Below are positions 6,356 through 60,568 of a stretch of DNA of 64,000 nt, piece by piece. Position numbers and translations under genes: made by a program. Origin of the DNA: a virus. Position 1 is the first letter of the stretch; each line of letters starts with the position of its first letter. The stretch lies in the IMG/VR virus record IMGVR_UViG_3300038556_000043, positions 19,736 through 83,735 of that record. One strand, written 5' to 3'. Under the pieces are notes generated by a model. That model did no database searches, was not told the origin of the DNA, and worked only from the letters and a program-made list of their open reading frames with translations.

Positions 6356-7075
6356 TTAGAGATAGGAAAGGACTTTTGCGCGTAGATCAGCCGTAGAGAA
6401 TGCTTTGCCCCAAACGCCTTCCTGGTATATACAGCAAGCCCTTCCTTCCGAGCTGTGGATATACATTAAATCCGTTCGGTAATCGTAATGAAATTCTAGC
6501 TTTGTATTAGCGGTATAAATCTTAGGTTTTGCTGCGCAGGTTTCAAACGAACAACCTGGTTTAAATCCTCTAATCAAAGCTTGCTTTTCCAAATGTTGTT
6601 TGATTTCATCCGCATTTGCCAGTTCATACCAATGTACCTGTTGATGCGCTATATAACCGTCTCCTGTTGTCGCATTGTAATCGAGAATAAAGCCTTGTTC
6701 GTTAAAGGCATTGATTCGTATTGGTCCCTCTGGGAAATTCTTGTATTTAACCCATTTGCCAACAAAAGAAGCCTCGTGGCGCAACTCTTTCTGTTTTTTA
6801 AGGTTTTCCAAGTACAATTCCCGATCAATCTGCGCAGCAATCAAAGCGCCGGCCACTACCAGTTTTTGCAAATAGGATTTATTGTCTACCTTTTCTTTAA
6901 AGCTTTTGTTCCAGAAGCGCGGCCAATCAAATACGGTAGGTGAAAGGCAATACCTGGCAGCATGCAAGAGTTCTTCATTGTTGTAATCGGCATCATTGGC
7001 AATATTGAAGCCATGCTTTTCAATTTGCTCCATACGTTCGGCTCCGATTAACTGTACCCCTATTGTGTATTTCAT
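6356..7075 (-). CDS. conserved phage protein (ER..QI..HG...EL..AA...WP...GALIAA.IDR family) with C-terminal extension
   Basis: Motif recognised in N-terminal 90 aa. Confidence 0.75.
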   Translation of the reverse strand: MKYTIGVQLIGAERMEQIEKHGFNIANDADYNNEELLHAARYCLSPTVFDWPRFWNKSFKEKVDNKSYLQKLVVAGALIAAQIDRELYLENLKKQKELRHEASFVGKWVKYKNFPEGPIRINAFNEQGFILDYNATTGDGYIAHQQVHWYELANADEIKQHLEKQALIRGFKPGCSFETCAAKPKIYTANTKLEFHYDYRTDLMYIHSSEGRACCIYQEGVWGKAFSTADLRAKVLSYL

Positions 7076-7095
7076 AAATAGTATGTTTTGAAAGT

Positions 7096-7464
7096 TTACG
7101 ATTGATTTTCAGGCTCTTTGAGTTTGTCTTTTGAAAACTCTTCAAATACCAACTGGCCTTTGCAATACTGGTAAAGACCGCCCACAAGATGGTATTTGAA
7201 TGGGTCTTCTTCTTTGTTTACAATCTCAAAATGCAAATCCGGATGCTCTTTGGATTGCCTTATGAAAGCTGGCCAGAGCGTTTTTGCAAAATGCCAGTCC
7301 TTGCATTGGATGCTATGAATGTCGAAATACTCATTCAACTCTCTTACGATTGCGCTTTCAATAGCTTGATATTCATCCATACTGATTTCCGACTCCTTTA
7401 CTTCGCCAGTATCAGTTTTTTCTTCCCTGTAGATGAACATTTCTAAATGATACCAATTAGCCAT
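7096..7464 (-). CDS. hypothetical protein (possible ferredoxin-like fold)
   Basis: 122 aa; W...SKEHPDLHFEI...EED pattern. Confidence 0.7.
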   Translation of the reverse strand: MANWYHLEMFIYREEKTDTGEVKESEISMDEYQAIESAIVRELNEYFDIHSIQCKDWHFAKTLWPAFIRQSKEHPDLHFEIVNKEEDPFKYHLVGGLYQYCKGQLVFEEFSKDKLKEPENQS

Positions 7465-12971: not shown

Positions 12972-12987
12972 ACCAAGAGAGCAACAC
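12972..12987 (-). promoter_or_regulatory. conserved 16-nt early-region motif, copy 1
   Basis: + strand ACCAAGAGAGCAACAC, 1 mismatch to consensus, ~70 nt upstream of 12901 ATG. Confidence 0.6.
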
Positions 12988-15052: not shown

Positions 15053-15538
15053 TTATGCTGCTGCGTCGGCTTCAACCATTGTAGGCTGAGCAACCGGCTT
15101 TGCTGCGCGCTCTGTCTTTGGAGTGTCGCAACGACGTTCCAGTTCAGAGAAGTTCAGCTTTGTGTGTACCCATTCGTTGAACTCATCAACGATCTGTAAA
15201 AGACCGCCAGCTACGAACGTTTCCCGGTTCAGGTTTTGGATAGCACCATTCTCATCGGAGTACTGGTTGATTACAAACATTCCGGGAAGTTCTTTTCCGT
15301 CTTTGTCCTTACCGTAGCCAATGGCGTTTCCGGCAATCTTCTTACCTGCAAGCTTGCTTGGTGTGTCAACATTGGCTTGGCTCATCAGGTTGTCAACCTG
15401 GGCTTTGCCCATGCGGAAGGCCATACGGTTTTTGTTACCGTCAACGGCTTCTCCCCAGAAGCTGTCAAGGATGGATCCTTCTTTAGACTTGGAAACGTTG
15501 ATAGAGGCAATCGCGAATACTAATCCTTGCTTTGTCAT
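15053..15538 (-). CDS. hypothetical protein (possible ssDNA-binding/OB-fold)
   Basis: Start MTKQGL (15538); own upstream motif and terminator; beta-rich N-terminus and low-complexity tail. Function is a guess. Confidence 0.7.
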   Translation of the reverse strand: MTKQGLVFAIASINVSKSKEGSILDSFWGEAVDGNKNRMAFRMGKAQVDNLMSQANVDTPSKLAGKKIAGNAIGYGKDKDGKELPGMFVINQYSDENGAIQNLNRETFVAGGLLQIVDEFNEWVHTKLNFSELERRCDTPKTERAAKPVAQPTMVEADAAA

Positions 15539-15669
15539 AACGGTAAAATTTAAAAGGGTTTTTGGGTTGGAAAACTGTGGTTTACAGCAGGTTACATTTT
15601 GATTACCGCCAATGTGAGGATAGTCAAACCCTTTATTGAAGAGCAAGACAACCTGAGCAAACCAGATAA

Positions 15670-15685
15670 ACAAAGAGAGCAACAC
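15670..15685 (-). promoter_or_regulatory. conserved 16-nt motif, copy 2
   Basis: + strand ACAAAGAGAGCAACAC. Confidence 0.65.
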
Positions 15686-15697
15686 AAGGCGTATTGC

Positions 15698-15877
15698 TCA
15701 GAAATAAAGTGTGGAATAAAGAGCGTGAAGAATGACACAAGACAAACCTTCCTGGGCAAATCGCTCAGAAAGGTATTGTCTCATTCCTTCGGTGGTAGTC
15801 TTGGCCAGCTTGACCAATACACCATTGGAATCAATCGCGGCAATGTACATAGGTGCAATAAGTGATTGCATTGCCAT
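15698..15877 (-). CDS. 59-aa hypothetical protein (not in track)
   Basis: MAMQSLIAPMYIAAIDSNGVLVKLAKTTTEGMRQYLSERF... Confidence 0.55.
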   Translation of the reverse strand: MAMQSLIAPMYIAAIDSNGVLVKLAKTTTEGMRQYLSERFAQEGLSCVILHALYSTLYF

Positions 15878-15941
15878 TGAAACGGACTGGCATAGGCCAG
15901 AAAGAACAGAAGGTCAGCATTTGACGCGGCGTTTAAGTGGA

Positions 15942-15985
15942 ACAAAACAAAAAACCCCGACAGGTTTGCTAGGCCTATCGGGGTC
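15942..15985 (-). terminator. intrinsic terminator
   Basis: ACCCCGATAGG-CCTAGCAAA-CCTGTCGGGGT-TTTTTGTTTTG. Confidence 0.8.
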
Positions 15986-16200
15986 AATCCTCTTTCGTAT
16001 TTTCGTCCGGTGATGAGGCAGAGTTTGAACTCTCGCACCGGCTTATCTGTCAAGACCAGTTACTATCTGGCAATTCAAGATTAACATAGCTGCCAGAACA
16101 GCTATGTTAATCCTCTATACGCTGCTGATTTTCCTTGCTTTCAGCGAGAGTGCGTAGACTCAACTATTCAGTGCTGTTTTTGGGACAGCCAACCTATTTC
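15945..16200 (-). ncRNA. candidate structured ncRNA (~250 nt)
   Basis: No credible ORF; serial hairpins incl. perfect 14-bp GATTAACATAGCTG/CAGCTATGTTAATC; bounded by motif copy 3 and a terminator. Confidence 0.5.
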
Positions 16201-16210
16201 AATCAGAAAG

Positions 16211-16226
16211 ACAAAGAGAGCAACAC
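16211..16226 (-). promoter_or_regulatory. conserved 16-nt motif, copy 3
   Basis: + strand ACAAAGAGAGCAACAC. Confidence 0.65.
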
Positions 16227-16405
16227 TAATCAACATCAGTGACAGAACATGCCACGAATGGAGTGAGTAGTGTTGCACCAATCATCATTACGAACCAATA
16301 CGGATCATTTGTCTCAATTGCCATGACAATCGATACTGCCATAATCATGATCGTCAGGATAATCATTGTAAATACTTCGGTGTATTTGTATACTATATTT
16401 TTCAT
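16226..16405 (-). CDS. 59-aa two-TM membrane protein (not in track)
   Basis: MKNIVYKYTEVFTMIILTIMIMAVSIVMAIETNDPYWFVMMIGATLLTPFVACS... Confidence 0.65.
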   Translation of the reverse strand: MKNIVYKYTEVFTMIILTIMIMAVSIVMAIETNDPYWFVMMIGATLLTPFVACSVTDVD

Positions 16406-16443
16406 AGCTGTTTGTAAGGCAGGGGTTTGATTGCCTCAGAACT

Positions 16444-16459
16444 ACAAAAAGAGCAACAC
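16444..16459 (-). promoter_or_regulatory. conserved 16-nt motif, copy 4
   Basis: + strand ACAAAAAGAGCAACAC (1 mismatch). Confidence 0.6.
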
Positions 16460-16473
16460 AAGCATTACCCTAG

Positions 16474-16512
16474 GTGAGTAAGTGAGTAAGTGAATGCTAA
16501 GTGAGTAAGTGA
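16474..16512. repeat. tandem GTGAGTAA repeats at the strand switch
   Basis: GTGAGTAA-GTGAGTAA-GTGAATGCTAA-GTGAGTAA-GTGA. Confidence 0.8.
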
Positions 16513-16679
16513 TTTTTTCTTGACACCCCTAACCTCCGATCAGCCACCAAAACCCGATTTCATTCTACTTTCATTCCAATACCCCTACCCCTATTTTTCT
16601 AGGTGTCACTTCTGACCATACACACTAAGATGATTTTAGATATTTGGTTTTGGGTGTGGGTATGGATGGTTTGTAATTT

Positions 16680-16711
16680 TTTGGTGATATTAATTAATTA
16701 TCTTATTTTTG
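16680..16711 (+). promoter_or_regulatory. host-type promoter for the packaging operon
   Basis: TTTG, 20-nt spacer, TATTTTTG; AATTATCT extension. Confidence 0.7.
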
Positions 16712-16730
16712 GGAAAATCAATTATGCGTT

Positions 16731-17195
16731 ATGGATTACAGGAAATTGGATACAATGTATTTATGGTTGACCGGTAGCAGCATTGATATGGATAAGGAGA
16801 AGGGAAAATTGAAGAAGTTCCCGTTTCGCATTCCGGTAAAGTCACAGGACCAGGTTGAGTACGTGAAAGCTTGCATGGATTTAAACCCTGACATTTTAAA
16901 TGTATGGGTATTCAGTGCTGATTACAAGGAGTTGGTTAAGATGCGCAGTTGGGAGGAGTGGGAAAAATTGAAGCGGTACCGTTGGGATTTAAATACAATG
17001 GGGAGGTTGTTGGAGTTATGGGGGGATCCGAATAAACCGGGAGAATTCAGACCAAAGGGAGGCGCAATTAACTCTTTCAATGACACGGCCAACTATTACA
17101 AGAGTCAGCGCACCGCTATTCAGATGCGTAATGCAAAAGTAGATTCATCTGCTTCGCCGGTAAAAAAACAGAAGTGGAAAAGTTTTAAGGCCTGA
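16731..17195 (+). CDS. hypothetical protein
   Basis: 154 aa, first gene of + strand module. Confidence 0.75.
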   Translation: MDYRKLDTMYLWLTGSSIDMDKEKGKLKKFPFRIPVKSQDQVEYVKACMDLNPDILNVWVFSADYKELVKMRSWEEWEKLKRYRWDLNTMGRLLELWGDPNKPGEFRPKGGAINSFNDTANYYKSQRTAIQMRNAKVDSSASPVKKQKWKSFKA

Positions 17196-40385: not shown

Positions 40386-40440
40386 TATTATTACGGCTTT
40401 TGGCTGTCACAAAAACACACAAGCCAGCCAAACCACAAAA

Positions 40441-40456
40441 ACAAAAAAAGCAACAC
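40441..40456 (-). promoter_or_regulatory. early-type motif copy upstream of the MTase island
   Basis: + strand ACAAAAAAAGCAACAC (2 mismatches), ~125 nt upstream of 40318 ATG in minus orientation. Confidence 0.45.
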
Positions 40457-46599: not shown

Positions 46600-46616
46600 A
46601 ATTTACTTATATTTGC
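46600..46616 (+). promoter_or_regulatory. late promoter for the vRNAP gene
   Basis: AATTTACT-TATATTTGC; track start (TTG 46613) lies inside it. Confidence 0.7.
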
Positions 46617-46636
46617 TGAAATTAAATTCGGCAAAT

Positions 46637-49600
46637 ATGTTCAATACTTCAAACGAAAATAGTGGCAATCTGCCTTTTGTTCCGTTCAAAGACGTACAAA
46701 AACAACTCCAGGAAGAAGCACAAAACTCTCCCAAAGAAATTTTTCAGGATGGCCCCTTAAAAGGCAATCCGAAGCCTCCCGCAAAGCCAATCATAGATTT
46801 TACTGACATTTCTGATTACGCTCCCAAAACATCACAGGATATAGACATATACCGTGATTTTGTGCGCGAAGCGGCTAATAACGCCAATGCAAACGGAAAG
46901 ATTGTTGACAGCCAGGGCAAAGAGAAAGAATTGAAAGGAAGCTGGTATGACACAATGGAAGGAAAGTTTGCGGGATTCAATGACTGGAAATACATGGCTC
47001 CCGTTCGTCAGGATGAATCTGGCCAATGGGTAGACGATACCAGTTACAACCCCACTACCGGATATATGCGTAAGTTCGACGACGAACAAAAATACGCTTT
47101 CCTCTATCCTGTTTATGATGAGAATGGCCAAGCCACTCTCAAAGAATTTATCGGTACCAAAGCCGAAATGCAATCAGCCCAGATTGCGGCATTGAATACG
47201 TTTGGTCCTGCCGAACGCAATGAAGGACTGATGACCTCGTTTGCCAAAGGTTTATCCAAGACTGTTTTGTCTACGGATGACCTGGTGGCCGGATTTGTAA
47301 AGTTTGGTACGCAGCCTTCCCGTTGGGTTAGCGAAGCCTTGTTCCGTGCCATGGGCGACAGTCCCGAAGAAGCAAGCTATTACGCAAACAATTCTTGGTT
47401 TGCCAAAGCCATTGATGGATTTTACAAAGATACCATCGAAGACTCCAACCAAAACGACTACGTTGCCAGCCAGAAGGCCAGTGACGCTTTTTCTGCCGAC
47501 TGGGTTGGTTCGGGCGTAGGTAACGCTTTGGGTAGTATCGCTCAGTTTGGTGGCATTGGCCGCGGCATTCGTCTGAGCGCGGGACTGTTCAACGCAGGAG
47601 CAAAACAGTTGGGTATTGATTTGCTCAAGCGTGAAACGGCAACCCTTTTGAGTACTTACGGTTCGTCTGCTGTACTTGGTTTTGGCGCAGGATTCAATGA
47701 GGCCAAAGCCAACGGGTTATCTGATGACATGGCATTTGCTTTTGCATTGCCAGTGGGATTAATCAATACCATTGTAGAAACCAAGCTTGGTGAAAACCTT
47801 GATAAATACCTCGTTGGTGGCCTTTCGGGAAATATTGCCAAGGAACTTTTCAACGAGACTGGCGGCAAGATATTGAGCGAAAAAGCCCTTGCCAAAGTAG
47901 TAAACAAGGTAGCCGAAAAAATGTCTTCCAAAGCCTTATTGGAAACCGCAAAGAATGCAGGTTCGGAAGGTCTTGAGGAAATGATTCAGGAAGGCAACGA
48001 ACAGCTTTGGCGCACTACCTTCAATGCTTTTGCGCTTACAGGTAACAAGGGGGAAGGAAAATTCAAAGAGGATGGTATCAATCTGGGTGCCATTGCCGAA
48101 AGCGGATTTTTTGGTACGGTGGCTTCCGGGCCTTCGTCTTACCGTGCGGCTTTGGCAGAATCGCGCAGCTATGGCTATCAGCCAGACAAGGTGATTGAAA
48201 GCTACGTTGCCCAGGGCAAAAAAGATCAGCTGATTTCCGGTTTGGACGAACTGCTTGCAAAAAAAGTAATCACCCAGGATCAATACAATGAGAAGATAGA
48301 CCGCATCAAAAAATTTGATCGGGTAGAGCAGCTGGCCAAAAAGAACAAAGCCAATTTCGGCAATGCTTTTCCTCAATTTTTGAAACACGAATTCACGCAA
48401 CTCAACTTGCAAAAATTCGAAATTGAGGAATCGTTAACAAACCTTTGGAATACCGAAGGTCAAAAACTGGCTTCGGGTGAGTTTGATCCCAAGTCATTAA
48501 AGAAAGAGGCTCAGGAGAAACTAGGAGGCTATCAGAAGCAGATTAATGAACTTGACAAGAAGATCAATCTGTACTATAGCCCTGAGTACATTGGCATGCG
48601 CAGTACGCAAATCAAAGAGTTGGCTGATTCGGTCAGTTCGGCCAACCGGTTTGCACGTACACGCAAATTTTTTGTCAACCTGAACCAACTCAAAACCAAA
48701 GCCCTCAACCGGCTGAAAAACAAATCTGGCAATACAACCGCTGATGTGGCTCCGGATGATATGCCGGTGGTAATCACTCCGGAAGAATTGAAAGCTGTGG
48801 TGGATGCGGTGAAAGCAGGAGATCCAGATGCAGGTATTACCATTGATGCCAATTGGCTCAATGAGAATCCTATCTACCTTTCGGATTTGTTCGGACCTGA
48901 TGACCTGGCGGTACTGGCTCAGTTTGGCGTAAATGTGCCTATGCCACAAACAACCCAATCCAATAAACCACAAGAAGGCCAAACCCAAACAAAGCCAGAA
49001 GAGCAAGGTCAGTTGCAAGCAGAAGGCCAAGCGGTATCTGTTACCGAACCTATAACCCCAAATCCGATTGCCGAGAACCCAGACGTTAGCCAGCAAACCC
49101 AAGGGGAGCAAACCAGTACAGAGGCGCAAGACAGCCTAATTAACCCCGTAGAGGCAACAACACAAGAACCCATTGCGCAACAGCAGCCCGTTCAAACCCA
49201 ACAAACCGAAGATACTACTTCCTCGCCAGTTGAAGTAGTATTGACTCCCGAGCAACAGGAATTGCAGCGGGTGGCCCAACTTGTGTCAAAACTGAAAAAC
49301 TTTGATCAGCTAAATTCTCTGCTGAAAAAGAATCCGGAGATTACCAAGACTTCAATCAAAGCAGCTGATCAGACTCAGGTGGCCATGAGTTTTCTCAAAC
49401 CTGAACAGCAATTGCTTTACAAAAAGCTTTTGGGTAGCAATTCTTATCCGCATTCGGTAATTCTGCTTGATTCGGCTGGCTCCAAGAAAGAAGGCCGTTA
49501 TGTGCGCAACCTGTACGCCACATTTGTCAAGGTCGATCTTACCAAACTCAATACCATTAGGCAAAAGATTGAAGCGGGTATTGAATCGCAAAAAGACTGG

Positions 49601-52600
49601 CTAGACTATCAGCAAATACAGAATGATTTCTTTCATCTGCTGATGCACGAAGGCACACACGCTTTGTTTGATGGAGAACTGACAAAGCTGCATAAGCAAG
49701 CCGTGGACGGTGATGTTCATGCGCAACGGGCTTGGAAGCGGTATACGGATTTAGCCACAACTGCATACGAGGCATTGAAGAATAATCCGGCTGCCAAAAA
49801 CCTGTACTTCTTCTCTCCTTTGGTGGCTCAAAAATACCAGAACATGACTGGCGCAAGGAAAATGACTTTTTCGCTGGATTTTGTTCATGAGTTTTTTGCT
49901 GAAGCTCTTTCCAATCGCAGCTTTATGGAACTTCTGAACGGGGTAAACCTGGACACAAGTGATCCTACGCTACGAGCAATCATTGATGAAAATTACGCTT
50001 ATGCCGATGTACCTCCAAGGTCTACTCTTTGGAATGAGATTGTCAAAGCAGTCGTTTCGGTATTCCCTTCGTTACGGGATAAGCTAAGCTTGTCTGACCG
50101 GACGCTATTGGCTGAGGCTTACAACATGGCTTCTCAGCTTAATATTGACATTGATCCGATTGTAGAACCGGCTCCTGTCAACAGTCCCGATGCGGTTGAA
50201 ATTACCAACCTTGACATTTTCCGCTATGAGCCGTTTGCCTTGTTTGGTCGTAACGAAAGCATCAATGCATCCGATCTGGCATCAGAGATTCAAGCCCGGG
50301 TTTCGGTTTTCAATCTGCCTTTTGATGACAAGTTTGACAAAAAACTTCGGGCCTCTTTGCAAAAAGGCATTGGCCTTAACTTTGTAGATGGCACATTCAA
50401 GCCTATTTTTTTCCGGTCAACCAATACCTACATGGTATCCTGGCAAGCAGACAATGGTGATGGAACGCAGGGAACACGCCGGATTTTTATTGACAGTTGG
50501 GGTAATCTGACTTCGATCAACACCAACGTTTTCAATACGGTTGATCCTGTAGACTTTTCCAAGCCAAGCGTATACGAGCCCTTCATGCAAGCCAACAAGC
50601 AAAGCAGCTATTGGGAAAGCAAACGCGAAATGCTCAATGCGTTTGACCGTGCGCACAAAGAAGAATTTCAAGGCCGTAGCTGGCTGACCTATGATCCTGA
50701 CTATGAATTTGTCATTGGCCGGGGAACCGACTACCAGAAAAAAGTAAAAGGTCAGGTTCAGGTGAATTACCAGTTTGCCGATGGAAGTACGGCCGTAATC
50801 GGATATGTACACGATCTGGCCAAAATAAAGCTTGGCCGTTTGCTTTCTACAGGAGCAAGCATTGAACTTGACTTGAAAGTTAAGCCGGGTGCGATGGGTT
50901 CTACCCTGCGCGTGAAGCGCAATGAGAATGGCGCCATTACCGATGTGAAATCTTTGAAAGAACTGGTAGAAGGCTATCAGGTTGAAGAAGGATTGTTCCC
51001 TGCCATAGATGTTCGCTACAAGTCTACTAATGTCAGCAAAGAGGTTTCTGACGCTTCTATCAAAGCCGATTCGTTCACCCACTACGACGAGGCCATTCCG
51101 GTAGAAACCAGAGAAGACCGACAAGATATGCAGCCCGAAGAAATAGTACGGGAAATCGAAGAAGAAAACGGATTCAAGGAGGTGCAACCTGTAAACGAAG
51201 AAGCTACCGTTGTTGACTTCATAATGCCCGATGCGGTAAAACTTCGCATTGAAACCAACAAGGATTTGGTATACCGTCGCGCACGTTACCGTAGGGCTTG
51301 GTTCAACCTGGAAGAAAACGACTTGAAAGACTTTATCATCAGTACTTCCCTGTCGCTTATAGAGAACATCAAACAATCGGAGATCCAAAACTACGGCCCT
51401 CAGATTGGTCCGTCCATAGACCTGTTTGGAATGTCTCAGGATGAATACAGCCAATGGGTGAAAGATGTTCACGACAAGGTAGTGGATGAAACGGCAAATG
51501 CCAGCCAGACGCAAGACGGTCAGGATTGGGACGGTAACGGATTCAACCCGGTAAACACGATTGCCCCGCGAATCAAATGGGACATTGAACGGCTTTTGTT
51601 CGTTGATCCGAACCTGAACCGTGTTGTACCCATGGACTTTACCGATGCTTCGGATATCCTGTATGACGCCACTCAGTTTGCCACTACCATTGAGCAGGTG
51701 ATTGCCAATCTTGAAAAAGTCGGCAACGATCCTGGCCAAAGCATTCGTAACCGAAACATTGCCGGCACACTTGCCAAAAACTATAAAAACTACCTGGGAG
51801 ACAAGTTGCCTCAAAGCGAAAAAGACGAGTTTACAAAAGCGGTACCTTCCCTGTTGTCGCAACTAGGTTCTTACCGTAGAACCGAAGCAATCATTTTCCA
51901 GCCCGTAGCCGACTCAAATGCGGTAAAAGGTTTTTATCCTAACCAGAGCAAAGAGTTCAGAAAGGTTGAGCAGGAACTTGTAACCAAGATCGAAAATTAT
52001 GTTTCTGACCTGAAAGCGATTCAGCTTCCGGAAGGCAGAAAACCAAGTTCTGTGCTGTGGAGCGAAGGCAATAAGATTTTCAACATCACCTCTGCAATGC
52101 GTACTGGCGACGATAAGCTTTCCCCTGTCAAGGTGCTAAAGCTTATTAATCGTTACCTGAACAATGACACGCTTGTTACCGGTATCAATGCCAAGGCTAT
52201 TTATGACAGCTTGAATGCCAAAGAGAAAATGTTTATGAGCCGGTACGTAAATCCTTCTACTGGCCTTTTCATTGACGAACCGGGGAAAGATGGTTACCAG
52301 ATGCTTACAAAGCACATGGAAGATTTCTTGCGCATGATCGGCATTGAAGATTTTCCTTTCCATCTGATGAGCCGTACACGCATTGAAGGCAGTGAGCAGT
52401 TTATTAACGAGCAGATTGAAGAAAACAAGAAGAAGGTTGTCAACCAAAGCTTGAACGAACTGGAAGAATTTCAGAAAACAGATCCTAGCGAGCAAGCATT
52501 GGAAGCCAAAAAAGCCGAGATTCGCAAAGAGGCTCAAAAGAAGCTGAATCGTTTCCGCAGGGATATTCAAAATTCGGTTCCGCTTTACAAGTACCATACG

Positions 52601-55600
52601 GTTACTGTTTCGCGCAACCAAAGCGAATCCAGTGAAAAAACCACTTCCGTAGAAAGAACCGTTCCCATTGCCGAGTTTGCCGTTCAGCTCTCCCGCTTTG
52701 CCTACACTACCGTGGAAAGTGCGGCCGATGGAAATACCGTTCCGATTGCTAAACGCTTGGGAGAATTAAAGACCCTTGCCGAAATTGTGCAGAATTACCG
52801 GGAAGGCAGAAACACCCCTCCTTTCTACATGGATGCTTCGCAGTCCAAACGCTGGAGCCGAAGAATCCGCAACTGGACGGATGATTTGATGGAAAAGCTT
52901 TCAAAGAATATTGACGGTATGATGCACCGTTACATGAAAGCTGATATCCACAAGGATAACAACGTGCTGGCCGCCATTGCCAAAAACAACGGTGAGCCGA
53001 TTGATGTGTATTTTGCCGGGGTGAAAAATTCAGAAGGCGTAGACGGTAGCACGTATTCGGATATGGACAATGGCGATTACATCTTTGCCCAGCTGTCGGG
53101 ATTTGTTACTATGCCAGACAAGTACTGGCACATGGACAAAACCCCTTCGGATAAGCCGGGGACCTACATGTATAAGCTTTTCAAGATTGATACGGCGCAG
53201 TACGAGAACGAGATTGAAAAGCTAAAAGGCATTGAGGAGGTCAGGGCGCAACGGGCCAGCCTACGTTTTAACGAAGCTTTTGAGCCGGTATACAAGAAAG
53301 ATGAAAATGGTAAAGCTATCAAAAATAGCAAAGGATTGCGTGTGGTTGACTACTATGCCATTAAAGACCAAGCCAAATTCAATAACCTTGTTGAACGTGC
53401 TGACTACAAAGGAAAAGACGGAAAATACTACAAAGGCGATTTACATGATCGAGCCAAATACTGGTACGGTGGCAAATCTACCGAGGCCACTCTTGCCAAA
53501 CTAAAAGAGGAGGCGCAGAAGTTTTATGACAAGCTGATTCAGGATAAGGTAAAGATTCCGGTTTCGTCTGCTTTTGAAAACGAATACAATCCTAATCTTA
53601 CCTATCAGCGGGCGGCAAGCGAAGGTTCTGAGTTTGAAGTAACCGAACAAGCCAAACTGCAATACCAGAACCTTTTGCAAAAAGAGCAGGAAAAGATTGT
53701 CAAGCAGTGGTATATCAATAGTGCCATTAATCAGTTCCACTTGGAAATGCTGGTTCAGGGTGATCCGCTGTACTACAAAGATTCGGTGGATACTTCTAAG
53801 CGTATGGCAGGAGCTCGCGGCCCGATTCAGCATCATGTGATGCAAGGAACTTTCAAGCTGGCCAGCCTTCGTGACATTGACGGTGGGAAAACTCCGGTCA
53901 TGCTGCCTAGCATTTCGGTCGACGCCGATGGCAATGCGGTCATTACCGAGCCAACAGAGAAGGCCGAAACCAACCGGGGGGATGCCCAGGGCTACGTAAC
54001 CGAAGATTTTGCCAGAAGATTGACAGAGGCATACGGTACGCTGGCAGGATATGGCCAAATCTTCAAGCCGCTCCTGTTTGGCGTACAGCCTCAGCACATC
54101 GAAGATAACCGTCCGAGTTACCTGAAGCTTTCCTTGTTTGTCGTTCCTGATCCGTACAATCCCAACAATTTGAAATACTACCAGGATCAACCCGACATGA
54201 TGCAGTTTGCCATGAAAATGTACGGGGAAACGGGTAACGCTGTCGATATTGCCGTATTTGAGTCAGGTATAAAAGTGGGTATGTCCAATGTATCCAATTA
54301 CGATGATCCTTTCTATGCTACGCAGGATATGGATTTGTCAATGCTCGGATTCCAGAACAACCCCAAACATATTACCGATGAAGATTCTGATATTTCGGGC
54401 ATGAGCCAGGGCAAAAAGATTTCGGGCAATATGTCTCCGAATCTGGCCAAGATTGCCTATGAAATTGAGGCTCGCATGATCAATGGCAAGGTAGATAAGG
54501 CATTGGAAAAGCTTACTCCGGATGGAATCATTCAGACTGCCTACGAAAGCTTGTCTGCGCGAAACCATACCGCTGAGATAGCAGAGGCGTTGAAGTCTGG
54601 TTTGTCGGTCGATAATCCAATCTTTGGAACCATGATCGAAAACCTTGTCAATTCCTCATTCGCCAGTGCAACAGAATATTTGCGTCTGCCAGGAAACAAG
54701 CTTGTCAACGTTTCCGAGTTGGGCATGAATCGTCCCGGACTCACACAGGAGCAGATTGAATTATACAACCAGATTGCCGAATCTGTTGGTGATCGCACCT
54801 TGCGTTGGGCCGGACCAAGAAAGGTAGACGAACTGCTGCCGTTCCAGTTGGAAGAATACCAGTACGGATTGGAAGCAGGGATTTACTCACTTGATTCCAA
54901 CGGCAACATTTTACAAGAAAAAGAAGGCAAATGGTATCCAAAAGTATTTCCTGCTGAGGTTCTGGTTCCGGCGTCCATGGGAAGCATTGGAGAGAAGTTG
55001 TTGGCTACCCGTATTCCGACTTCGGGGCCGCAGTCAATCATTCCCGCTGTCATTGTCGGTCATTTGCCTAGCGAACTTGTGTCTGGCAATACCATTGTAT
55101 CTCCCAAAGAAGGCCCCGGCATTTTGGGTTTTGACTTTGATGTGGACGGTTTGTTTACCTGGAGAAAAGGCGGTAACAAGGCCATGAAGCAGATGTTTGA
55201 CATTTACTTTGAAATCTTTACCGATCCTAACAACTACAATGACATTACCGAGGCGATCAGCACCGATACATTCAATGACCTTTTGTTCGACCCCAAGAAA
55301 AGCGATGAACAAAACAAGGAACGTTTATTAGGTAGAGAAGGCTCCGAGTATGATCCAAGTTCTCCGGCCACTCAGATTCTTTACAGGGATTTGAATAAGA
55401 TCGGTAAGAAGTTCATTGGTATTTCTGCTGTGGCTGCCAATATCCACAACGTATTTTCCTCTTACCATAAAATGGGAAAGACCATTGAGATTCTGGGAAA
55501 GGTAAGCAAATACGTCAATCTGCCGCGCAGCATCAATATCGGTAGCATCATTTACCGCCAATATGTTTCTACGTATGTGGACATGGTGACTGGCGAGGTA

Positions 55601-58600
55601 AAGCCTATTGCCCCTGTCATGGCAACAATGGTAAACCTTGCGACCGATAACGCCAAACTGCAAAAGCTTTTCAAACTAGGCCTTACGCTTGAAAACGCAG
55701 GTATCTTCTTTGACTTTGTTCTCAAGGGCATTGACCCCAAATACCCACTGTATTTGCTCAATCAGCCTATTGTGAAGGAATACGAAAAGCTGGCTTTGTC
55801 CGAAAAACGGGTTTCTCAAAAGTATTCCGGAAACGAGGCTTACCGGGATCTTGTTGCCAAATACGAAGGAATCATTTCGAACCTGACCGGACAGCAATAC
55901 CGGTACGCTTCCCGCGTAATGGTATCTCCTACCAACCAGGTTGATGTTTCCGTTTCGTTTGATGACCTGAAAATAATGCTGGAACGTTCGGTAATGGGCA
56001 CTGATTCGCCAATGCAAAACGATGTGGAGTACATGAAGCAACAGCTGTTGGTTCTGGAAAAATACCGTTACTACAGCAAGATATCTAAAATTACCAATCA
56101 GCTAGGGGCTTTGATTCGTTTGGATTCTTCGTATCCGAAAACATTCCTGGAGGCTGCCAGCCGTTATGAGCAAATCGGAAAAGGCTTTGACAAAAGCAAT
56201 GTCTCCCAACTGGTAGGGCTCGAAAGAGAAGAAACCGATTTTGGTGTTATCTATAAAGAGATCAAAGACAATCACCCGATTTACAAGATGCATTACCGTG
56301 CATTGACCGAACTTATCAATGCCTATTCGGGTGTTAAGGCCATTGCCGAGCAAGACGTATTTTCAAGATTGTATCCGTTTATGGAAGGTCTTTCTTCTGA
56401 CAACCAGAAAAAGATAGAGGAGCATTACAAAAACTACCTGGTTCAAAGCAAGACCGATTACAATTCTTCTTTGCTTGGCAAGAAAATGACCAATTACCAT
56501 TTTGTGGATTGGTCGAGCCGGATCATTGCCGATCTGATGAATGATCCTTCGTATGCCGGCAACGAGTTTTTTAAGCTGCTTACTGCCGAAATCGTACTCA
56601 AATCTAACCATGACAGAATTATTAATCAGCAAATCAAGCCCTCTACTATCAAGGCCAACACGTTAGGCAAGGAGTTCACCAAAAAGCAAGTCGACGCGAT
56701 TCACAAAGCCTACCTGAGTCTGCCTACAGAGTACCAGCATCCGGAGTTTGATCAGCCGATAGATATTCAAAAATTGCTGGTGGCCAATATTCTTTATACG
56801 AAAGGCTTGGGAATGGGCGGCTTTAACTTCACGCAGCTTTTGCCGGTAGATATAATCAAGTCTTTGGATAGTGCCATAGACCTAAGTGACAGCCGCGACT
56901 TGAGAATAAAGGCAACCGCGTTTTCCAAGCAGCTCATTCAAAACATGAAATTCCTGCAGCGCGACATTAAGAACGACGAACTGGAAGGATTACGGACTTT
57001 GGTACGGATGCAAAAGAAAGTTGATCTGAACCGCATCAAAGTAACCTATGATGTAAAATCCCGCCGCAATCCCGGGTTCAATTTCCTTTGGGATAACCTG
57101 AGCGAATACCGTGGGGTATGGGTGCCGCAGAAAGATGGTAGCAAAGCCTTGTATACCAAAGAATCGGTTCAGATTTCCGAATACGAATACGAACATTACC
57201 TGGTTAAGCTTGACGCTCCCAAGCAAAACTTTGTGGCTGAGTTCTATCCTGCTGCCGATCCTGTCGCAGAAGATATGTCACAAGAGATCGAAAATACAAT
57301 AGCGGTTGCAGAGCAAATTATAAATGCGGTAAACAAAGGCTCCCTGGCCAATGACCCACAGGAAAAGCCAATTCAGGAAAACGAGGAAATCAGCCAGCAA
57401 CAAACCGAGCCAAAAGAACAACCAGGTGAGCCGCAAGCACCCGAACCAATCAATGAAAAAGCAGTAGGAAAAGCAACGCTGATCAAAGCAAACAAGAAGC
57501 TGGAATACACCTTGTTCAATTCCGTTTTTGGAAAGGACATAACCAAAAAAGGATACAAGGTAACCATTGCTGAATTGCCAGACGTTGAACTTTACATTAC
57601 CAATGAGTATGTTGGCACGGACGGAAACCCGGTAACCAAAAAGGCATGGCAAATCGAATCGGTATTACCTGAAAAGGGCGTGATTACCGTTGCCAACTAT
57701 GGAACTACCATTGCTGAGACTTTGGAGAAGTTTGCCGATGACCTCAATTACAAATACATGTATTCGGCCCAAGCCAGGGAAAAGCTGGCTACGGTAGGAA
57801 TTTATTTGGACCCGCGGCTTATGCCTCCAGCAGAAGACACTGACGAGAGCCAAGAGGGTATTCTGAACTACTATGAAGATGTGGTAGGCTACAAGCAACG
57901 GGATACGCCTATGGATGACATGACGCTGGCAGAGCAGGTGATCTATTACCGTTTCGGGGATCTGGCTAACGATATCTGGTCAGCAAACAGTACGATCAAT
58001 CCTGATGATGTGTATGATCCGAACTTTGTAGATTCTGCCACAAGACAGCCCTACACCTATCAGCAAATCATTGATCAGATTATGGGCCAATACCGCGCGG
58101 AAGAAGGCGAATTATTCCAGCTTGCCGATAAGATTGACAATAACAACTACCTGGGACGCGATGCCAATGGCAATTATGTGACCTCTACGAAGGATTTGGC
58201 AGTCATGCATCACTTCATGGCGCGTAATTTCAATACCGCGGATGGACTTGCCAAAAAGGAATTTGCCAATTTGTTCCGCAAGGTTGCCGACGAACTGGTA
58301 AACCGCAGGGTAATGGAGCATATTGCCAAAAACAATATCAGTCCCGATGTTTTGAAAAATCAGAGAGACATTGGCCGCTTCTCAAACTTTACCACTTCCG
58401 TTGCCGAAGTATCTGCCAACCAAGCAGCCTTGCAAGCTGAATCCAAGCGTATCGATGCAGCCAAATATATGACCGATACTGAAACAAACAAGGTAGTTGG
58501 AAAGCTTCGCATTTTGCTTAACAACGTGTACAAAGCCCACTTCGCCAGTCAATCCGATCAGTGGCATCGCAGGTTCCGTTTCTGGGAAAACCACAAGCGT

Positions 58601-60568
58601 CACAACGAGCCCTTCCTATGGCTGTACGAGAAAGACCAGTTTGGCGAATATACCGGGCGTTTCATTCAGAAATACGATTACCGTACCAAAGCCAAAACAC
58701 AGGAGTTTTTGGATATGGAATTGGCTGCCACACAAAACACACCGGAAGGAGAATTGGCAAAAGCAAAACTGGCCTTGTATGATTTTCTGGAAACAGAAGG
58801 AAACAAGCTTTTGCAGGAAAACGATTATACCAATATTCCGCAGGATCGGGCTTTCATGCCGCATCTGGGCGTGGATATGGAAGAGGCATATTCCCGCTAC
58901 GGTATGTCGGGCGCGTATCTGGCTTTCTCCGGAGTTGAAGATTACAACGATATCCTGAACAAAGTCATTGTTACTGACAACGGCAAAACGCAAAGCGTAG
59001 GCCAATGGCGCATAGACTTGGTAGAAGTTACCGGAAAATTCACCGATAACAAAGCCAATATTGATCGGTTTGCCGCTATCCTGGACAATGCCAGACAACA
59101 GGTAAAGAACGGCACTTCCGGGCTTTCCCGTTACGACATTGAACAAATGGAATCGTTTGAGTCAAGCTTCTCGGTAAGTTCGAAAATTCCGTTCCGTGCG
59201 GTAATGCGCAAAAAGCGTTTCTCGATCAATACTTCCCGTATTCTGGTTCAGCATTTCACTCAACTGATTTTCAAGAAATACCACGATCCTGTACTTACCG
59301 AGTTGCAGGCTACGGCAATGCATTACCAGATGAAGTCAAAGAATCCGAAGGATTTCGAGAACATCAACAACTTCATTGAACTGTACGGCAACCGGTATTT
59401 CTTTGGAAAAAAAGATGCGTTTTCCAACTCAAAAGCGGGAAAAACTCTTGAGGTGCTTTCTTCGGTTACCGTGTCTGCCTTTTTGGGATTTGCCCCTACC
59501 AATGCCCTTTTGAACATGGTCGGCGGCTTGACAGAGGTTTACAAGAATAATATTGAAAACTACGGTTGGGCAGAAGGTACTACCAAATTTGGCGTAGGTA
59601 TGAAAAGATTGCTAGCCGAAGGCAAACGCGAATACCGCAGTCCGTCCGAAGCAGTTCCACGTGTAGTATTCAATCCGAAGGCCCTGGCACTTGCCGAACG
59701 TTTCAATATTGAGAACTTTAGCCAGATTGATACCGAGCAGGAAGGCAGTGCTTGGGCGCGTTTTACCAAGTTTGCAATGCAGCTTCAGCGCAGTTCCGAG
59801 ATTGCGGTACGGGTGGCATCTTTCTTAGGGGAGCTCACGCAAGAGCAATGGGATAATTACGTTCTTGACCCCAACGGACAAATACTAATCAAAGATCCTT
59901 CCATTGCACCAACGATTGAAGATGTAAACCGCTGGAAATACTATGTTTCTTCCAAGCAAGGATTTTACGATCCTGCCCAACGCTACAACTATTCGTATTA
60001 CGGAATAGCCAAAGGGGTTATGCTATTCAAAAACTGGATGCTCTCATTTTTCAAGGAACGCTTTTATCTGGACCCGAAAAACAAGGAACTCAACTACGCC
60101 GATCTGGACAGATACGGGCGAATGAGGCAAGGCTATTACGTAAGCGGGGCAATGGTAGCCAAAGACTACCTGGTTCATCTGGCAAAATTCAAATCCATCA
60201 TGGGCTTTAGGCCGCTGAACGAAATGGAGCAAGCCAACCTAAGAAAGCTGATTTTTGATGTGGGCATTCTGGTTACGCTTCTGGCCCTGGGCAATATCGG
60301 CGACGATGATGAAGAAGAAGGTTACTGGACAAATTTTGTCAATAAACTGAACTCTCAGCTTTATTTTTCATTGACGCCGGCCGAATGGGTAAAAACCTTG
60401 AAACAGCCTACTCCTTCGCTGTCGATCATTGAAAACCTTGTCAGCGCATTGGCTAACCTTGCCAGCTTGAAAGCAGAAAAAGCAGGAAACAATCTGATCA
60501 AAGCAATTCCTGGTGGCAATATCGTGGAAGGTGTCATTGATCTGGCACAATCAGAGGAAAACGAGTAA
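46637..60568 (+). CDS. giant virion-associated DNA-dependent RNA polymerase polyprotein (crAss-like) with zincin domain
   Basis: ~4643 aa; catalytic GFDFDVD (55133-47) preceded by ATRIPTSGPQS; HEGTH (49646-60) plus HEFFAEALSN; N-terminal Gly-rich hydrophobic helices with EGLEE..QE. Confidence 0.9.
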   Translation: MFNTSNENSGNLPFVPFKDVQKQLQEEAQNSPKEIFQDGPLKGNPKPPAKPIIDFTDISDYAPKTSQDIDIYRDFVREAANNANANGKIVDSQGKEKELKGSWYDTMEGKFAGFNDWKYMAPVRQDESGQWVDDTSYNPTTGYMRKFDDEQKYAFLYPVYDENGQATLKEFIGTKAEMQSAQIAALNTFGPAERNEGLMTSFAKGLSKTVLSTDDLVAGFVKFGTQPSRWVSEALFRAMGDSPEEASYYANNSWFAKAIDGFYKDTIEDSNQNDYVASQKASDAFSADWVGSGVGNALGSIAQFGGIGRGIRLSAGLFNAGAKQLGIDLLKRETATLLSTYGSSAVLGFGAGFNEAKANGLSDDMAFAFALPVGLINTIVETKLGENLDKYLVGGLSGNIAKELFNETGGKILSEKALAKVVNKVAEKMSSKALLETAKNAGSEGLEEMIQEGNEQLWRTTFNAFALTGNKGEGKFKEDGINLGAIAESGFFGTVASGPSSYRAALAESRSYGYQPDKVIESYVAQGKKDQLISGLDELLAKKVITQDQYNEKIDRIKKFDRVEQLAKKNKANFGNAFPQFLKHEFTQLNLQKFEIEESLTNLWNTEGQKLASGEFDPKSLKKEAQEKLGGYQKQINELDKKINLYYSPEYIGMRSTQIKELADSVSSANRFARTRKFFVNLNQLKTKALNRLKNKSGNTTADVAPDDMPVVITPEELKAVVDAVKAGDPDAGITIDANWLNENPIYLSDLFGPDDLAVLAQFGVNVPMPQTTQSNKPQEGQTQTKPEEQGQLQAEGQAVSVTEPITPNPIAENPDVSQQTQGEQTSTEAQDSLINPVEATTQEPIAQQQPVQTQQTEDTTSSPVEVVLTPEQQELQRVAQLVSKLKNFDQLNSLLKKNPEITKTSIKAADQTQVAMSFLKPEQQLLYKKLLGSNSYPHSVILLDSAGSKKEGRYVRNLYATFVKVDLTKLNTIRQKIEAGIESQKDWLDYQQIQNDFFHLLMHEGTHALFDGELTKLHKQAVDGDVHAQRAWKRYTDLATTAYEALKNNPAAKNLYFFSPLVAQKYQNMTGARKMTFSLDFVHEFFAEALSNRSFMELLNGVNLDTSDPTLRAIIDENYAYADVPPRSTLWNEIVKAVVSVFPSLRDKLSLSDRTLLAEAYNMASQLNIDIDPIVEPAPVNSPDAVEITNLDIFRYEPFALFGRNESINASDLASEIQARVSVFNLPFDDKFDKKLRASLQKGIGLNFVDGTFKPIFFRSTNTYMVSWQADNGDGTQGTRRIFIDSWGNLTSINTNVFNTVDPVDFSKPSVYEPFMQANKQSSYWESKREMLNAFDRAHKEEFQGRSWLTYDPDYEFVIGRGTDYQKKVKGQVQVNYQFADGSTAVIGYVHDLAKIKLGRLLSTGASIELDLKVKPGAMGSTLRVKRNENGAITDVKSLKELVEGYQVEEGLFPAIDVRYKSTNVSKEVSDASIKADSFTHYDEAIPVETREDRQDMQPEEIVREIEEENGFKEVQPVNEEATVVDFIMPDAVKLRIETNKDLVYRRARYRRAWFNLEENDLKDFIISTSLSLIENIKQSEIQNYGPQIGPSIDLFGMSQDEYSQWVKDVHDKVVDETANASQTQDGQDWDGNGFNPVNTIAPRIKWDIERLLFVDPNLNRVVPMDFTDASDILYDATQFATTIEQVIANLEKVGNDPGQSIRNRNIAGTLAKNYKNYLGDKLPQSEKDEFTKAVPSLLSQLGSYRRTEAIIFQPVADSNAVKGFYPNQSKEFRKVEQELVTKIENYVSDLKAIQLPEGRKPSSVLWSEGNKIFNITSAMRTGDDKLSPVKVLKLINRYLNNDTLVTGINAKAIYDSLNAKEKMFMSRYVNPSTGLFIDEPGKDGYQMLTKHMEDFLRMIGIEDFPFHLMSRTRIEGSEQFINEQIEENKKKVVNQSLNELEEFQKTDPSEQALEAKKAEIRKEAQKKLNRFRRDIQNSVPLYKYHTVTVSRNQSESSEKTTSVERTVPIAEFAVQLSRFAYTTVESAADGNTVPIAKRLGELKTLAEIVQNYREGRNTPPFYMDASQSKRWSRRIRNWTDDLMEKLSKNIDGMMHRYMKADIHKDNNVLAAIAKNNGEPIDVYFAGVKNSEGVDGSTYSDMDNGDYIFAQLSGFVTMPDKYWHMDKTPSDKPGTYMYKLFKIDTAQYENEIEKLKGIEEVRAQRASLRFNEAFEPVYKKDENGKAIKNSKGLRVVDYYAIKDQAKFNNLVERADYKGKDGKYYKGDLHDRAKYWYGGKSTEATLAKLKEEAQKFYDKLIQDKVKIPVSSAFENEYNPNLTYQRAASEGSEFEVTEQAKLQYQNLLQKEQEKIVKQWYINSAINQFHLEMLVQGDPLYYKDSVDTSKRMAGARGPIQHHVMQGTFKLASLRDIDGGKTPVMLPSISVDADGNAVITEPTEKAETNRGDAQGYVTEDFARRLTEAYGTLAGYGQIFKPLLFGVQPQHIEDNRPSYLKLSLFVVPDPYNPNNLKYYQDQPDMMQFAMKMYGETGNAVDIAVFESGIKVGMSNVSNYDDPFYATQDMDLSMLGFQNNPKHITDEDSDISGMSQGKKISGNMSPNLAKIAYEIEARMINGKVDKALEKLTPDGIIQTAYESLSARNHTAEIAEALKSGLSVDNPIFGTMIENLVNSSFASATEYLRLPGNKLVNVSELGMNRPGLTQEQIELYNQIAESVGDRTLRWAGPRKVDELLPFQLEEYQYGLEAGIYSLDSNGNILQEKEGKWYPKVFPAEVLVPASMGSIGEKLLATRIPTSGPQSIIPAVIVGHLPSELVSGNTIVSPKEGPGILGFDFDVDGLFTWRKGGNKAMKQMFDIYFEIFTDPNNYNDITEAISTDTFNDLLFDPKKSDEQNKERLLGREGSEYDPSSPATQILYRDLNKIGKKFIGISAVAANIHNVFSSYHKMGKTIEILGKVSKYVNLPRSINIGSIIYRQYVSTYVDMVTGEVKPIAPVMATMVNLATDNAKLQKLFKLGLTLENAGIFFDFVLKGIDPKYPLYLLNQPIVKEYEKLALSEKRVSQKYSGNEAYRDLVAKYEGIISNLTGQQYRYASRVMVSPTNQVDVSVSFDDLKIMLERSVMGTDSPMQNDVEYMKQQLLVLEKYRYYSKISKITNQLGALIRLDSSYPKTFLEAASRYEQIGKGFDKSNVSQLVGLEREETDFGVIYKEIKDNHPIYKMHYRALTELINAYSGVKAIAEQDVFSRLYPFMEGLSSDNQKKIEEHYKNYLVQSKTDYNSSLLGKKMTNYHFVDWSSRIIADLMNDPSYAGNEFFKLLTAEIVLKSNHDRIINQQIKPSTIKANTLGKEFTKKQVDAIHKAYLSLPTEYQHPEFDQPIDIQKLLVANILYTKGLGMGGFNFTQLLPVDIIKSLDSAIDLSDSRDLRIKATAFSKQLIQNMKFLQRDIKNDELEGLRTLVRMQKKVDLNRIKVTYDVKSRRNPGFNFLWDNLSEYRGVWVPQKDGSKALYTKESVQISEYEYEHYLVKLDAPKQNFVAEFYPAADPVAEDMSQEIENTIAVAEQIINAVNKGSLANDPQEKPIQENEEISQQQTEPKEQPGEPQAPEPINEKAVGKATLIKANKKLEYTLFNSVFGKDITKKGYKVTIAELPDVELYITNEYVGTDGNPVTKKAWQIESVLPEKGVITVANYGTTIAETLEKFADDLNYKYMYSAQAREKLATVGIYLDPRLMPPAEDTDESQEGILNYYEDVVGYKQRDTPMDDMTLAEQVIYYRFGDLANDIWSANSTINPDDVYDPNFVDSATRQPYTYQQIIDQIMGQYRAEEGELFQLADKIDNNNYLGRDANGNYVTSTKDLAVMHHFMARNFNTADGLAKKEFANLFRKVADELVNRRVMEHIAKNNISPDVLKNQRDIGRFSNFTTSVAEVSANQAALQAESKRIDAAKYMTDTETNKVVGKLRILLNNVYKAHFASQSDQWHRRFRFWENHKRHNEPFLWLYEKDQFGEYTGRFIQKYDYRTKAKTQEFLDMELAATQNTPEGELAKAKLALYDFLETEGNKLLQENDYTNIPQDRAFMPHLGVDMEEAYSRYGMSGAYLAFSGVEDYNDILNKVIVTDNGKTQSVGQWRIDLVEVTGKFTDNKANIDRFAAILDNARQQVKNGTSGLSRYDIEQMESFESSFSVSSKIPFRAVMRKKRFSINTSRILVQHFTQLIFKKYHDPVLTELQATAMHYQMKSKNPKDFENINNFIELYGNRYFFGKKDAFSNSKAGKTLEVLSSVTVSAFLGFAPTNALLNMVGGLTEVYKNNIENYGWAEGTTKFGVGMKRLLAEGKREYRSPSEAVPRVVFNPKALALAERFNIENFSQIDTEQEGSAWARFTKFAMQLQRSSEIAVRVASFLGELTQEQWDNYVLDPNGQILIKDPSIAPTIEDVNRWKYYVSSKQGFYDPAQRYNYSYYGIAKGVMLFKNWMLSFFKERFYLDPKNKELNYADLDRYGRMRQGYYVSGAMVAKDYLVHLAKFKSIMGFRPLNEMEQANLRKLIFDVGILVTLLALGNIGDDDEEEGYWTNFVNKLNSQLYFSLTPAEWVKTLKQPTPSLSIIENLVSALANLASLKAEKAGNNLIKAIPGGNIVEGVIDLAQSEENE

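Follow-up and report, generated by a model that had tools for sequence, protein, structure and literature searches.

Genomic context of the locus

The window analysed here is a 64,000-nt stretch of DNA, corresponding to positions 19736-83735 of a 104.6-kb single virus record. Its genes run leftward from ~16500 and rightward from ~16730, and the locus under study lies on the leftward arm, where a small membrane peptide gene, a promoter-like motif, an ORF-free stretch with several hairpins, a terminator and two overlapping small ORFs follow one another. These features are listed below in the order of transcription; L132 and L133 are contigs of a relative described in a later section.

16226-16405, minus strand: upstream gene for a membrane peptide of 59 aa that has the NDPYW motif; 33% identical to L132:2403-2582, which lies at the same place
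16211-16226, minus strand: promoter-like 16-nt motif GTGTTGCTCTCTTTGT, copy 'P2', an exact match
16157-16204, minus strand: SL1, a 48-nt imperfect rod, from the alignment with L132/L133
16171-16190, minus strand: apical hairpin of SL1, holding GCUGU/ACAGC, with the loop CCCAAAA at 16178-16184
16044-16156, minus strand: window-specific expansion, hairpins 2-4
16118-16156, minus strand: hairpin with GCUGA/UCAGC inside CUACGC/GCGUA
16079-16092 / 16099-16112, minus strand: perfect 14-bp inverted repeat
16055-16071, minus strand: CCAG/CUGG hairpin
16007-16041, minus strand: hairpin 5, CCGGUG...CACCGG enclosing AGAGU-UCAA-ACUCU
15943-15985, minus strand: intrinsic terminator, from sequence and folds
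15698-15893, minus strand: downstream small ORFs without a motif of their own
15831-15893, minus strand: degenerate-looking micropeptide ORF, overlapping the 50-59-aa ORF
15698-15877, minus strand: 50-59-aa ORF with a likely start at 15850; the 50-aa form is 52% identical to L132:2836-2988

The source is a very divergent crAss-like phage. Its terminase and portal matched crAss-type PHROG families, the closest sequences by tblastn were crAss-like phages only, at 22-25% identity, and the domains found in its relatives included Crass_capsid and CrAss_Ring. An ORF of 4651 aa (window 46613-60568) carries DFDVD at residue 2841, and the catalytic motif of crAss-like virion RNA polymerases is DFDxD with V or I at the fourth position (bioRxiv 10.1101/2020.03.07.982082). 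This ORF is roughly twice as long as gp66, the virion polymerase of phi14:2, and the giant ORFs of the phage are uninterrupted under table 11. Across the region, a second assembly (L124) of this phage was 100% identical to the window. The record is classed as a provirus in IMG/VR, with a CheckV completeness of 70%; the same proteins are recorded on a 684-kb contig, and an independent assembly is a contig of 105.9 kb, so that either the phage is integrated somewhere or the 684-kb contig is chimeric. The host is probably a member of the Bacteroidota, where we know of no Hfq-type chaperone.

Boundaries and hairpins of the unit

An earlier note on this DNA, made from the letters alone, had described a ~250-nt multi-hairpin noncoding RNA on the minus strand, starting just after a copy of the motif and ending at a strong terminator. 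Both ends held up. The unit extends from 16210, immediately behind the exact motif copy, to ~15947, and is the second transcription unit of the leftward, presumably early, arm. The motif copy adjoins the stop codon of the 59-aa membrane peptide gene. Since no terminator lies between that gene and the motif, the stretch would also form the 3′ end of the upstream message. At the other end, a 12-pair stem (GACCCCGAUAGG/CCUGUCGGGGUU) at 15953-15985 encloses a 9-nt loop and is followed by the U-tract UUUUUUGUUUUG, which runs to 15943. Read on the plus strand, this hairpin has AATCCTCTTT behind it and no T-tract, and the terminator is therefore specific to the minus strand.

All hairpins that had been named (GCTGT/ACAGC, GCTGA/TCAGC, the perfect 14-bp repeat, CCAG/CTGG and CCGGT...ACCGG) were recovered at their positions. 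The perfect repeat, one of only five in 64 kb with separate arms of at least 13 nt, extends to 17 pairs with G-U ends in a hairpin at 16077-16114, for which the folding probability was ~1.0. Pair probabilities were 0.8-1.0 for the inner stems of hairpins 2-4 and 0.77-0.96 for the outer stem of hairpin 5. Considering the unit as a whole, the fold z-score was -3.6 with the terminator and -1.9 without it, the latter with 6 of 200 shuffles as good, and the 189-nt core ranked in the best 3% of the 190-nt windows of the genome after correction for G+C. Overall folding energy is thus suggestive and not decisive, and the fold alone is insufficient for a claim. No paralogue of the RNA was found in the phage's own genome, and hairpins 2-4 have no other copy there.

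The 16-nt motif occurs five times in the window, compared to 0.22 occurrences expected, and seven times genome-wide, always on the minus strand and ahead of leftward units. Variants of it stand at the head of early units in all of the relatives L120, L121, L123, L125, L132, L135 and L136. We infer that the motif is a promoter, possibly one for a virion-packaged polymerase, and as such it would be the unit's own promoter. A scan of IMG/VR with the 16-nt motif gave more than 119 single matches in unrelated contigs, which were regarded as chance.

Coding potential and known RNA families

The claim that no credible ORF lies in the unit was borne out. The only ATG-initiated ORF wholly within it has 8 codons. 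Longer frames comprised two overlapping TTG-initiated ORFs of 90 and 37 aa on the minus strand and a 93-aa ORF on the plus strand, the last of which was called by an automatic gene finder in L124. None of the three matched a Pfam or PHROG family, the two minus-strand TTG ORFs had no tblastn match in the relatives, and the composition of these frames was odd; all three were rejected as genes. Short frames running through SL1 have no ATG, and substitutions there suit pairing better than codons. Recoded frames were discarded as well, as they would need 1-11 stops to be read through.

A comparison with known RNAs gave the same outcome for the statement that the stretch does not match tRNA, tmRNA, RNase P or hammerhead cores. 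The Rfam search that the earlier note had proposed, run with Rfam 15 over the whole window, returned nothing at gathering score; within 15400-16800 the best match was snoU13 (19.5 bits vs 46), which lies outside the unit, and the others were driven by the terminator, with E>0.2, and were regarded as junk. The homologue in L132 had no Rfam match either, and ARAGORN found no tRNA or tmRNA gene in the window. The loop of hairpin 5 holds UUCAAA, and this hairpin was considered as a T-arm; it was rejected, since its loop has 4 or 6 nt and no 5-pair stem is formed around a 7-nt loop.

Relatives of the phage and a homologous unit in L132

A search with the terminase detected seven relatives (57-76% identity), four of which gave loci including the divergent region, namely L120, L121, L123 and L125. 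These four share with the window the motif, the TGGTGGCTGA box and the CACTTA repeats before the first motif copy, and also a conserved leader followed by a gene of 161-169 aa. Two models were used for searching the RNA itself: R1, of 189 nt and built from the window sequence only, and R2, covering SL1 and built from two sequences. R1 gave nothing significant in L120, L121, L123 and L125. An exhaustive profile search with the 161-aa protein led to further contigs including L132, in which R1 matched positions 2616-2698 with 25.4 bits (E 7e-6). L132 and L133 are identical sequences from two sequencing runs and were counted as one distinct homologue. R2 returned only a look-alike at E=6 on the antisense strand of the L123 terminase gene, which we regard as chance, and the RNA was absent from six other, more distant relatives.

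Wider searches added nothing to this set. Terminase-based searches of IMG/VR and species genomes found no relatives, and a terminase search of a metagenome collection returned only three contigs that were already known. Exact-pattern scans of IMG/VR and species genomes with hairpin 5, hairpin 3 and the SL1 core were empty, blastn of 15400-17000 against phage GenBank records had no match, and word-index protein searches with the neighbouring 161-aa and 50-aa proteins recovered only the window's own proteins.

The gene order of L132 is that of the window: membrane peptide, motif, RNA, terminator, micropeptide overlapping the 50-aa ORF, motif, conserved leader, and then the 161-167-aa gene (167 aa in L132). 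In both phages the motif and a terminator bound an ORF-free stretch, and the terminator of L132 is equally strong and at the matching place. The RNA would be ~167 nt long in L132, compared to ~260 nt in the window. DNA identity between the two peaks at 73-80% across 16153-16222 and is nil across 16000-16150, so that only the promoter motif, the first ~65 nt and the position of the terminator are conserved. In this 5′ module the identity is well above that of the neighbouring proteins (33-52%).

Hairpins 2-4, including the perfect repeat, take up 114 model positions and correspond to 11 nt in L132; they are best explained as a lineage-specific expansion, which would have no conserved role. As for hairpin 5, the covariance model aligned its CCGGUG/CACCGG with UCAGAG/CUCUGG of L132. 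L132 folds this stretch in another, competing register, and the conservation of hairpin 5 is therefore ambiguous. The whole L132 RNA folded no better than shuffles (z -1.06). Homology and covariation, which had been suggested as a check, thus supported the idea of a noncoding unit with a syntenic homologue and compensatory changes in its first stem-loop, while the idea of a single multi-hairpin fold as a conserved structure did not stand, hairpins 2-4 being absent in L132.

Covariation in SL1

SL1 begins ~6 nt after the motif, behind a brief single-stranded start, and has 14 pairs. Of the 28 pair cells in the window and L132, 27 were paired, and 4 of the 14 pairs had changed on both sides (A-U/G-C, U-G/A-U, U-A/C-G and G-C/U-A). 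When the pairing was slid by 1-3 columns as a control, 0-1 double-changed pairs and 29-50% pairing were observed. The two sequences differ at 13 of 48 positions, of which 8 are in compensating pairs, 1 is a wobble, 3 are internal-loop positions and 1 breaks a pair. Identical in both phages are the 7-nt loop CCCAAAA and the 3′ flank GCACUGA, which spans the internal loop; the 4x4 internal loop GGUU/UGAW varies at its last position only. A shuffle control for SL1 gave 34 of 500, in a test that two distinct sequences limit to ~1 in 16. Compensatory substitutions were seen for SL1 only, again between two distinct sequences. The best reading of these data is that SL1 would be the selected part of the RNA.

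Downstream genes

The micropeptide encoded behind the terminator is conserved in the clade, where its ORF belongs to the first early units, with the pattern (F/W)(I/L)GN(R/H/K)I(A/C)xLQD and a length of 21-26 aa in L120, L121, L125, L132, L135 and L136. Its ORFs in these relatives are at the following positions.

L120:7815-7875, micropeptide ORF
L121:7610-7680, micropeptide ORF
L125:7210-7275, micropeptide ORF
L132:2787-2855, micropeptide ORF
L135:595-675, micropeptide ORF
L136:462-530, micropeptide ORF

Synonymous third-position changes suggest that the micropeptide may be translated. In addition, its core codons GGCAAT-CGC-ATTGCC fold into a hairpin. In the six relatives that lack the RNA (L120, L121, L125, L135 and L136, and partly L123) the micropeptide ORF stands directly behind the motif, with a leader of 30-60 nt between them; in the window and in L132, the interval between motif and ORF is taken up by the RNA with its terminator. 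Such an arrangement could have arisen by insertion of an RNA gene behind a promoter or by expansion of a regulatory leader.

Proposed mode of action and alternative explanations

The stretch is most likely a real early phage noncoding RNA. We consider it a noncoding RNA unit because it has no coding signal, a terminator that works in one direction, a syntenic homologue, and compensatory changes in SL1. It is a new family of a known kind of RNA. Transcription would start a few bases past the motif at 16211-16226 and in most cases end at the intrinsic terminator at 15943-15985. The product, ~260 nt in the window and ~167 nt in L132, would have a stem-loop at its 5′ end and the terminator hairpin at its 3′ end, as stable small RNAs usually do. 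SL1, whose apical and internal loops are kept while its stems change by compensation, would be the part that functions, and it could serve as a specific docking site. What docks there could be a protein or a complementary RNA loop, for which the leader of a methyltransferase unit at 40400-40417 is the candidate. The downstream small ORFs would be expressed from transcripts that read through the terminator. Promoter function, transcript ends, abundance and action in trans are inferred throughout, and we give an even chance to this reading, in which an early small RNA ending at the terminator acts through SL1.

The arrangement in the relatives could also mean that the stretch is the cis-acting 5′ leader, or attenuator, of the downstream small-ORF unit, for which the motif would be the promoter; read-through would then be set by the terminator together with SL1, to which a phage or host factor might bind, and the short RNA would be a by-product. 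The motif followed directly by the micropeptide ORF behind a 30-60-nt leader in six relatives, the position of RNA and terminator in the window and L132, precisely in the interval from this motif to this ORF, and the conservation (52%) of downstream ORFs which have no motif of their own all agree with a leader. CAGGG/CCCUG repeats in L132 could moreover pair alternatively with the terminator arms. In the window, however, nothing upstream was seen by eye to be complementary to either arm of the 15953-15985 stem, and because this alternative pairing for opening the terminator is missing there, an attenuator switch appears not to be conserved. The terminator is also very strong in both phages, the window copy of the micropeptide looks degenerate, and no riboswitch or leader family of Rfam matched the stretch. 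On balance we hold a leader to be somewhat unlikely.

It is improbable, in our view, that the stretch has no dedicated RNA function, being instead a fast-evolving spacer or the 3′ tail of the upstream peptide message, in which the hairpins are incidental and the first 65 conserved bases are an extension of the promoter at the DNA level. Such a spacer would account for a body that is not conserved and an overall fold only modestly better than shuffles, and the high conservation of the leader behind the next motif copy indicates that promoter-proximal conservation is general in the clade. A DNA site, however, would not need the pair-preserving changes that overwhelmingly make up the substitutions in SL1, and a gap of ~260 nt in a dense phage genome, with a dedicated strong terminator in both phages, is not what a spacer would lead one to expect. 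A different role in cis, that of a nut-like antitermination site, would make the motif a boxA-like RNA element and give the apical hairpin with its A-rich loop the role of boxB, so that loaded factors let the polymerase pass the many terminators of the early arm. E. coli rrn boxA is UGCUCUUUAACAA, and lambda nut consists of boxA and boxB; the motif core UGCUCU(C/U)UUU seems to resemble the boxA consensus, and a hairpin, SL1, follows the motif from ~6 nt. In addition, the early arm is rich in terminator-like hairpins (13 in 4.5 kb, compared to 3.8 expected), and the motif copy at 12972 has one such hairpin within 14 nt behind it, which is odd for a promoter. Set against this, the other motif copies are followed by unrelated sequence, with SL1 behind only one of the seven, and the motif at 40441-40456 is 2 nt from the start codon of a divergent gene, so that a promoter upstream of it would fall inside that gene; we rank this explanation low for these two reasons. 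The loop also has 7 nt (CCCAAAA) and not the 5 nt of a boxB-type loop, and an N-like protein is not known here. We consider a nut-like site most unlikely.

A candidate partner of SL1

The partner named above for SL1 was found by a blastn-short search of the whole genome.

40400-40417, minus strand: candidate trans target of 18 nt, 17/18 match, E 0.083

It is complementary to nt 19-36 of the RNA, which run from the 5′ flank of the apical hairpin through its 5′ arm into the loop. The candidate lies 24-41 nt past the motif copy at the head of the methyltransferase unit, which also has a 96-aa ORF, and falls within the loop and 3′ arm of a local hairpin. SL1 could then be a trans-acting kissing antisense regulator, its CCCAAAA loop and 5′ arm pairing with the hairpin loop UGUUUUUGUG in the leader of the methyltransferase unit. 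An early RNA might control this unit because the same motif would drive it. The complementarity is marginal; its position in one of the few leaders headed by the motif adds interest only post hoc, and we treat it as a lead only. RNAduplex target prediction was uninformative, its energies being the same as for random segments because it allows long interior loops. We would be surprised if the antisense reading proved right; if it did, L132 would be expected to have, in the leader of its methyltransferase unit, the complement of its own SL1, a sequence similar to CCUUUUUUGGGAAGGCCAA.

Were this the case, one early RNA would time or limit the expression of the DNA-modification island. In a crAss-like phage such a regulatory RNA circuit would be the first to be described, and it would open a way to study the promoters that the injected polymerase uses.

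Relation to known early RNAs

Structured RNAs that act early are known from other phages: the lambda nut sites and HK022 put RNAs are cis antitermination RNAs located just downstream of early promoters. The unit in the window is similar to them in that a structured RNA follows a promoter-like element upstream of a terminator, with an A-rich hairpin loop and a boxA-like string nearby. It differs in the size and sequence of the loop, and in that its hairpin is present at one of seven motif copies.

In the crAss-like phage phi14:2, two very abundant early noncoding RNAs were reported, between g004 and g005 and between g005 and g006, near the start of the early arm and with function unknown (bioRxiv 10.1101/2020.03.07.982082). 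Like the RNA of the window, they are noncoding and lie within the first few kb of the early arm of a crAss-like phage, in the direction of the early genes. Their regions total ~1.7 kb, in contrast to ~0.26 kb in the window, and the phi14:2 early transcripts have no common upstream motif, whereas the unit in the window is headed by the 16-nt motif. Expression was shown for the phi14:2 RNAs; the RNA of the window is predicted from its sequence. When R1 and R2 were run against phi14:2 (NC_021806 1-8000), nothing better than E 0.24 was obtained, and the RNAs of the two phages have no similarity in sequence or structure.

Like terminator-ended small RNAs of bacteria and phages in general, the unit has a promoter-like element of its own, is 170-260 nt long, opens with a stem-loop whose exposed loop is conserved, and closes with a hairpin and U-tract; it differs in matching no known family.

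Few viruses are known to be as abundant as crAss-like phages, and their early transcription is poorly understood. The divergent clade studied here offers a compact and bounded case, consisting of a 16-nt motif, a 48-nt conserved stem-loop and a terminator, in a unit small enough for synthesis and assay in vitro. Should SL1 turn out to be a decoy or to regulate, an early RNA of the group would for the first time have a function assigned to it; if the stretch is a leader only, it would be an ordinary piece of phage gene regulation.

Other elements in the early region

Several other elements were observed in the early regions of these phages. In several relatives, the motif's 5′ half doubles as the 3′ arm of the hairpin before it, as seen at L121:7728-7767, L123:325-347 and L125:7325-7356. 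The divergent intergenic region of the window (16460-16730) has a conserved box (T/C/G)GGTGGC(T/A)(G/A), which reads TGGTGGCTGA in the window and is followed in every relative by 2-6 CACTTA(A/C/G) repeats just 5′ of the first motif copy. Box and repeats occur at L120:7930-8260, L121:7770-7900, L123:690-860, L125:7560-7640, L132:2070-2160, L135:330-400 and L136:60-180. They may be iterons, a replication origin or an element lying upstream of the first promoter of the early arm.

The leader behind the third motif copy (window 15600-15669, minus strand) is 73-83% identical to L132:3080-3160 and has counterparts at L120:7640-7720 and L121:7450-7540. It forms a hairpin ACAUU-GGCGGUAAUCAA-AAUGU, with UACU/AGUA in L121, and is putatively another conserved RNA element, located before the 161-aa gene.

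In L125, a noncoding stretch of ~330 nt (6850-7170, minus strand; fold z -2.45) lies between two terminators and 5′ of the same conserved early gene, and is a positional analogue of the window RNA, with which it has no detectable homology. The terminase of L125 (10001-13129) contains an intein with a homing-endonuclease domain (Hom_end_hint, LAGLIDADG_3).
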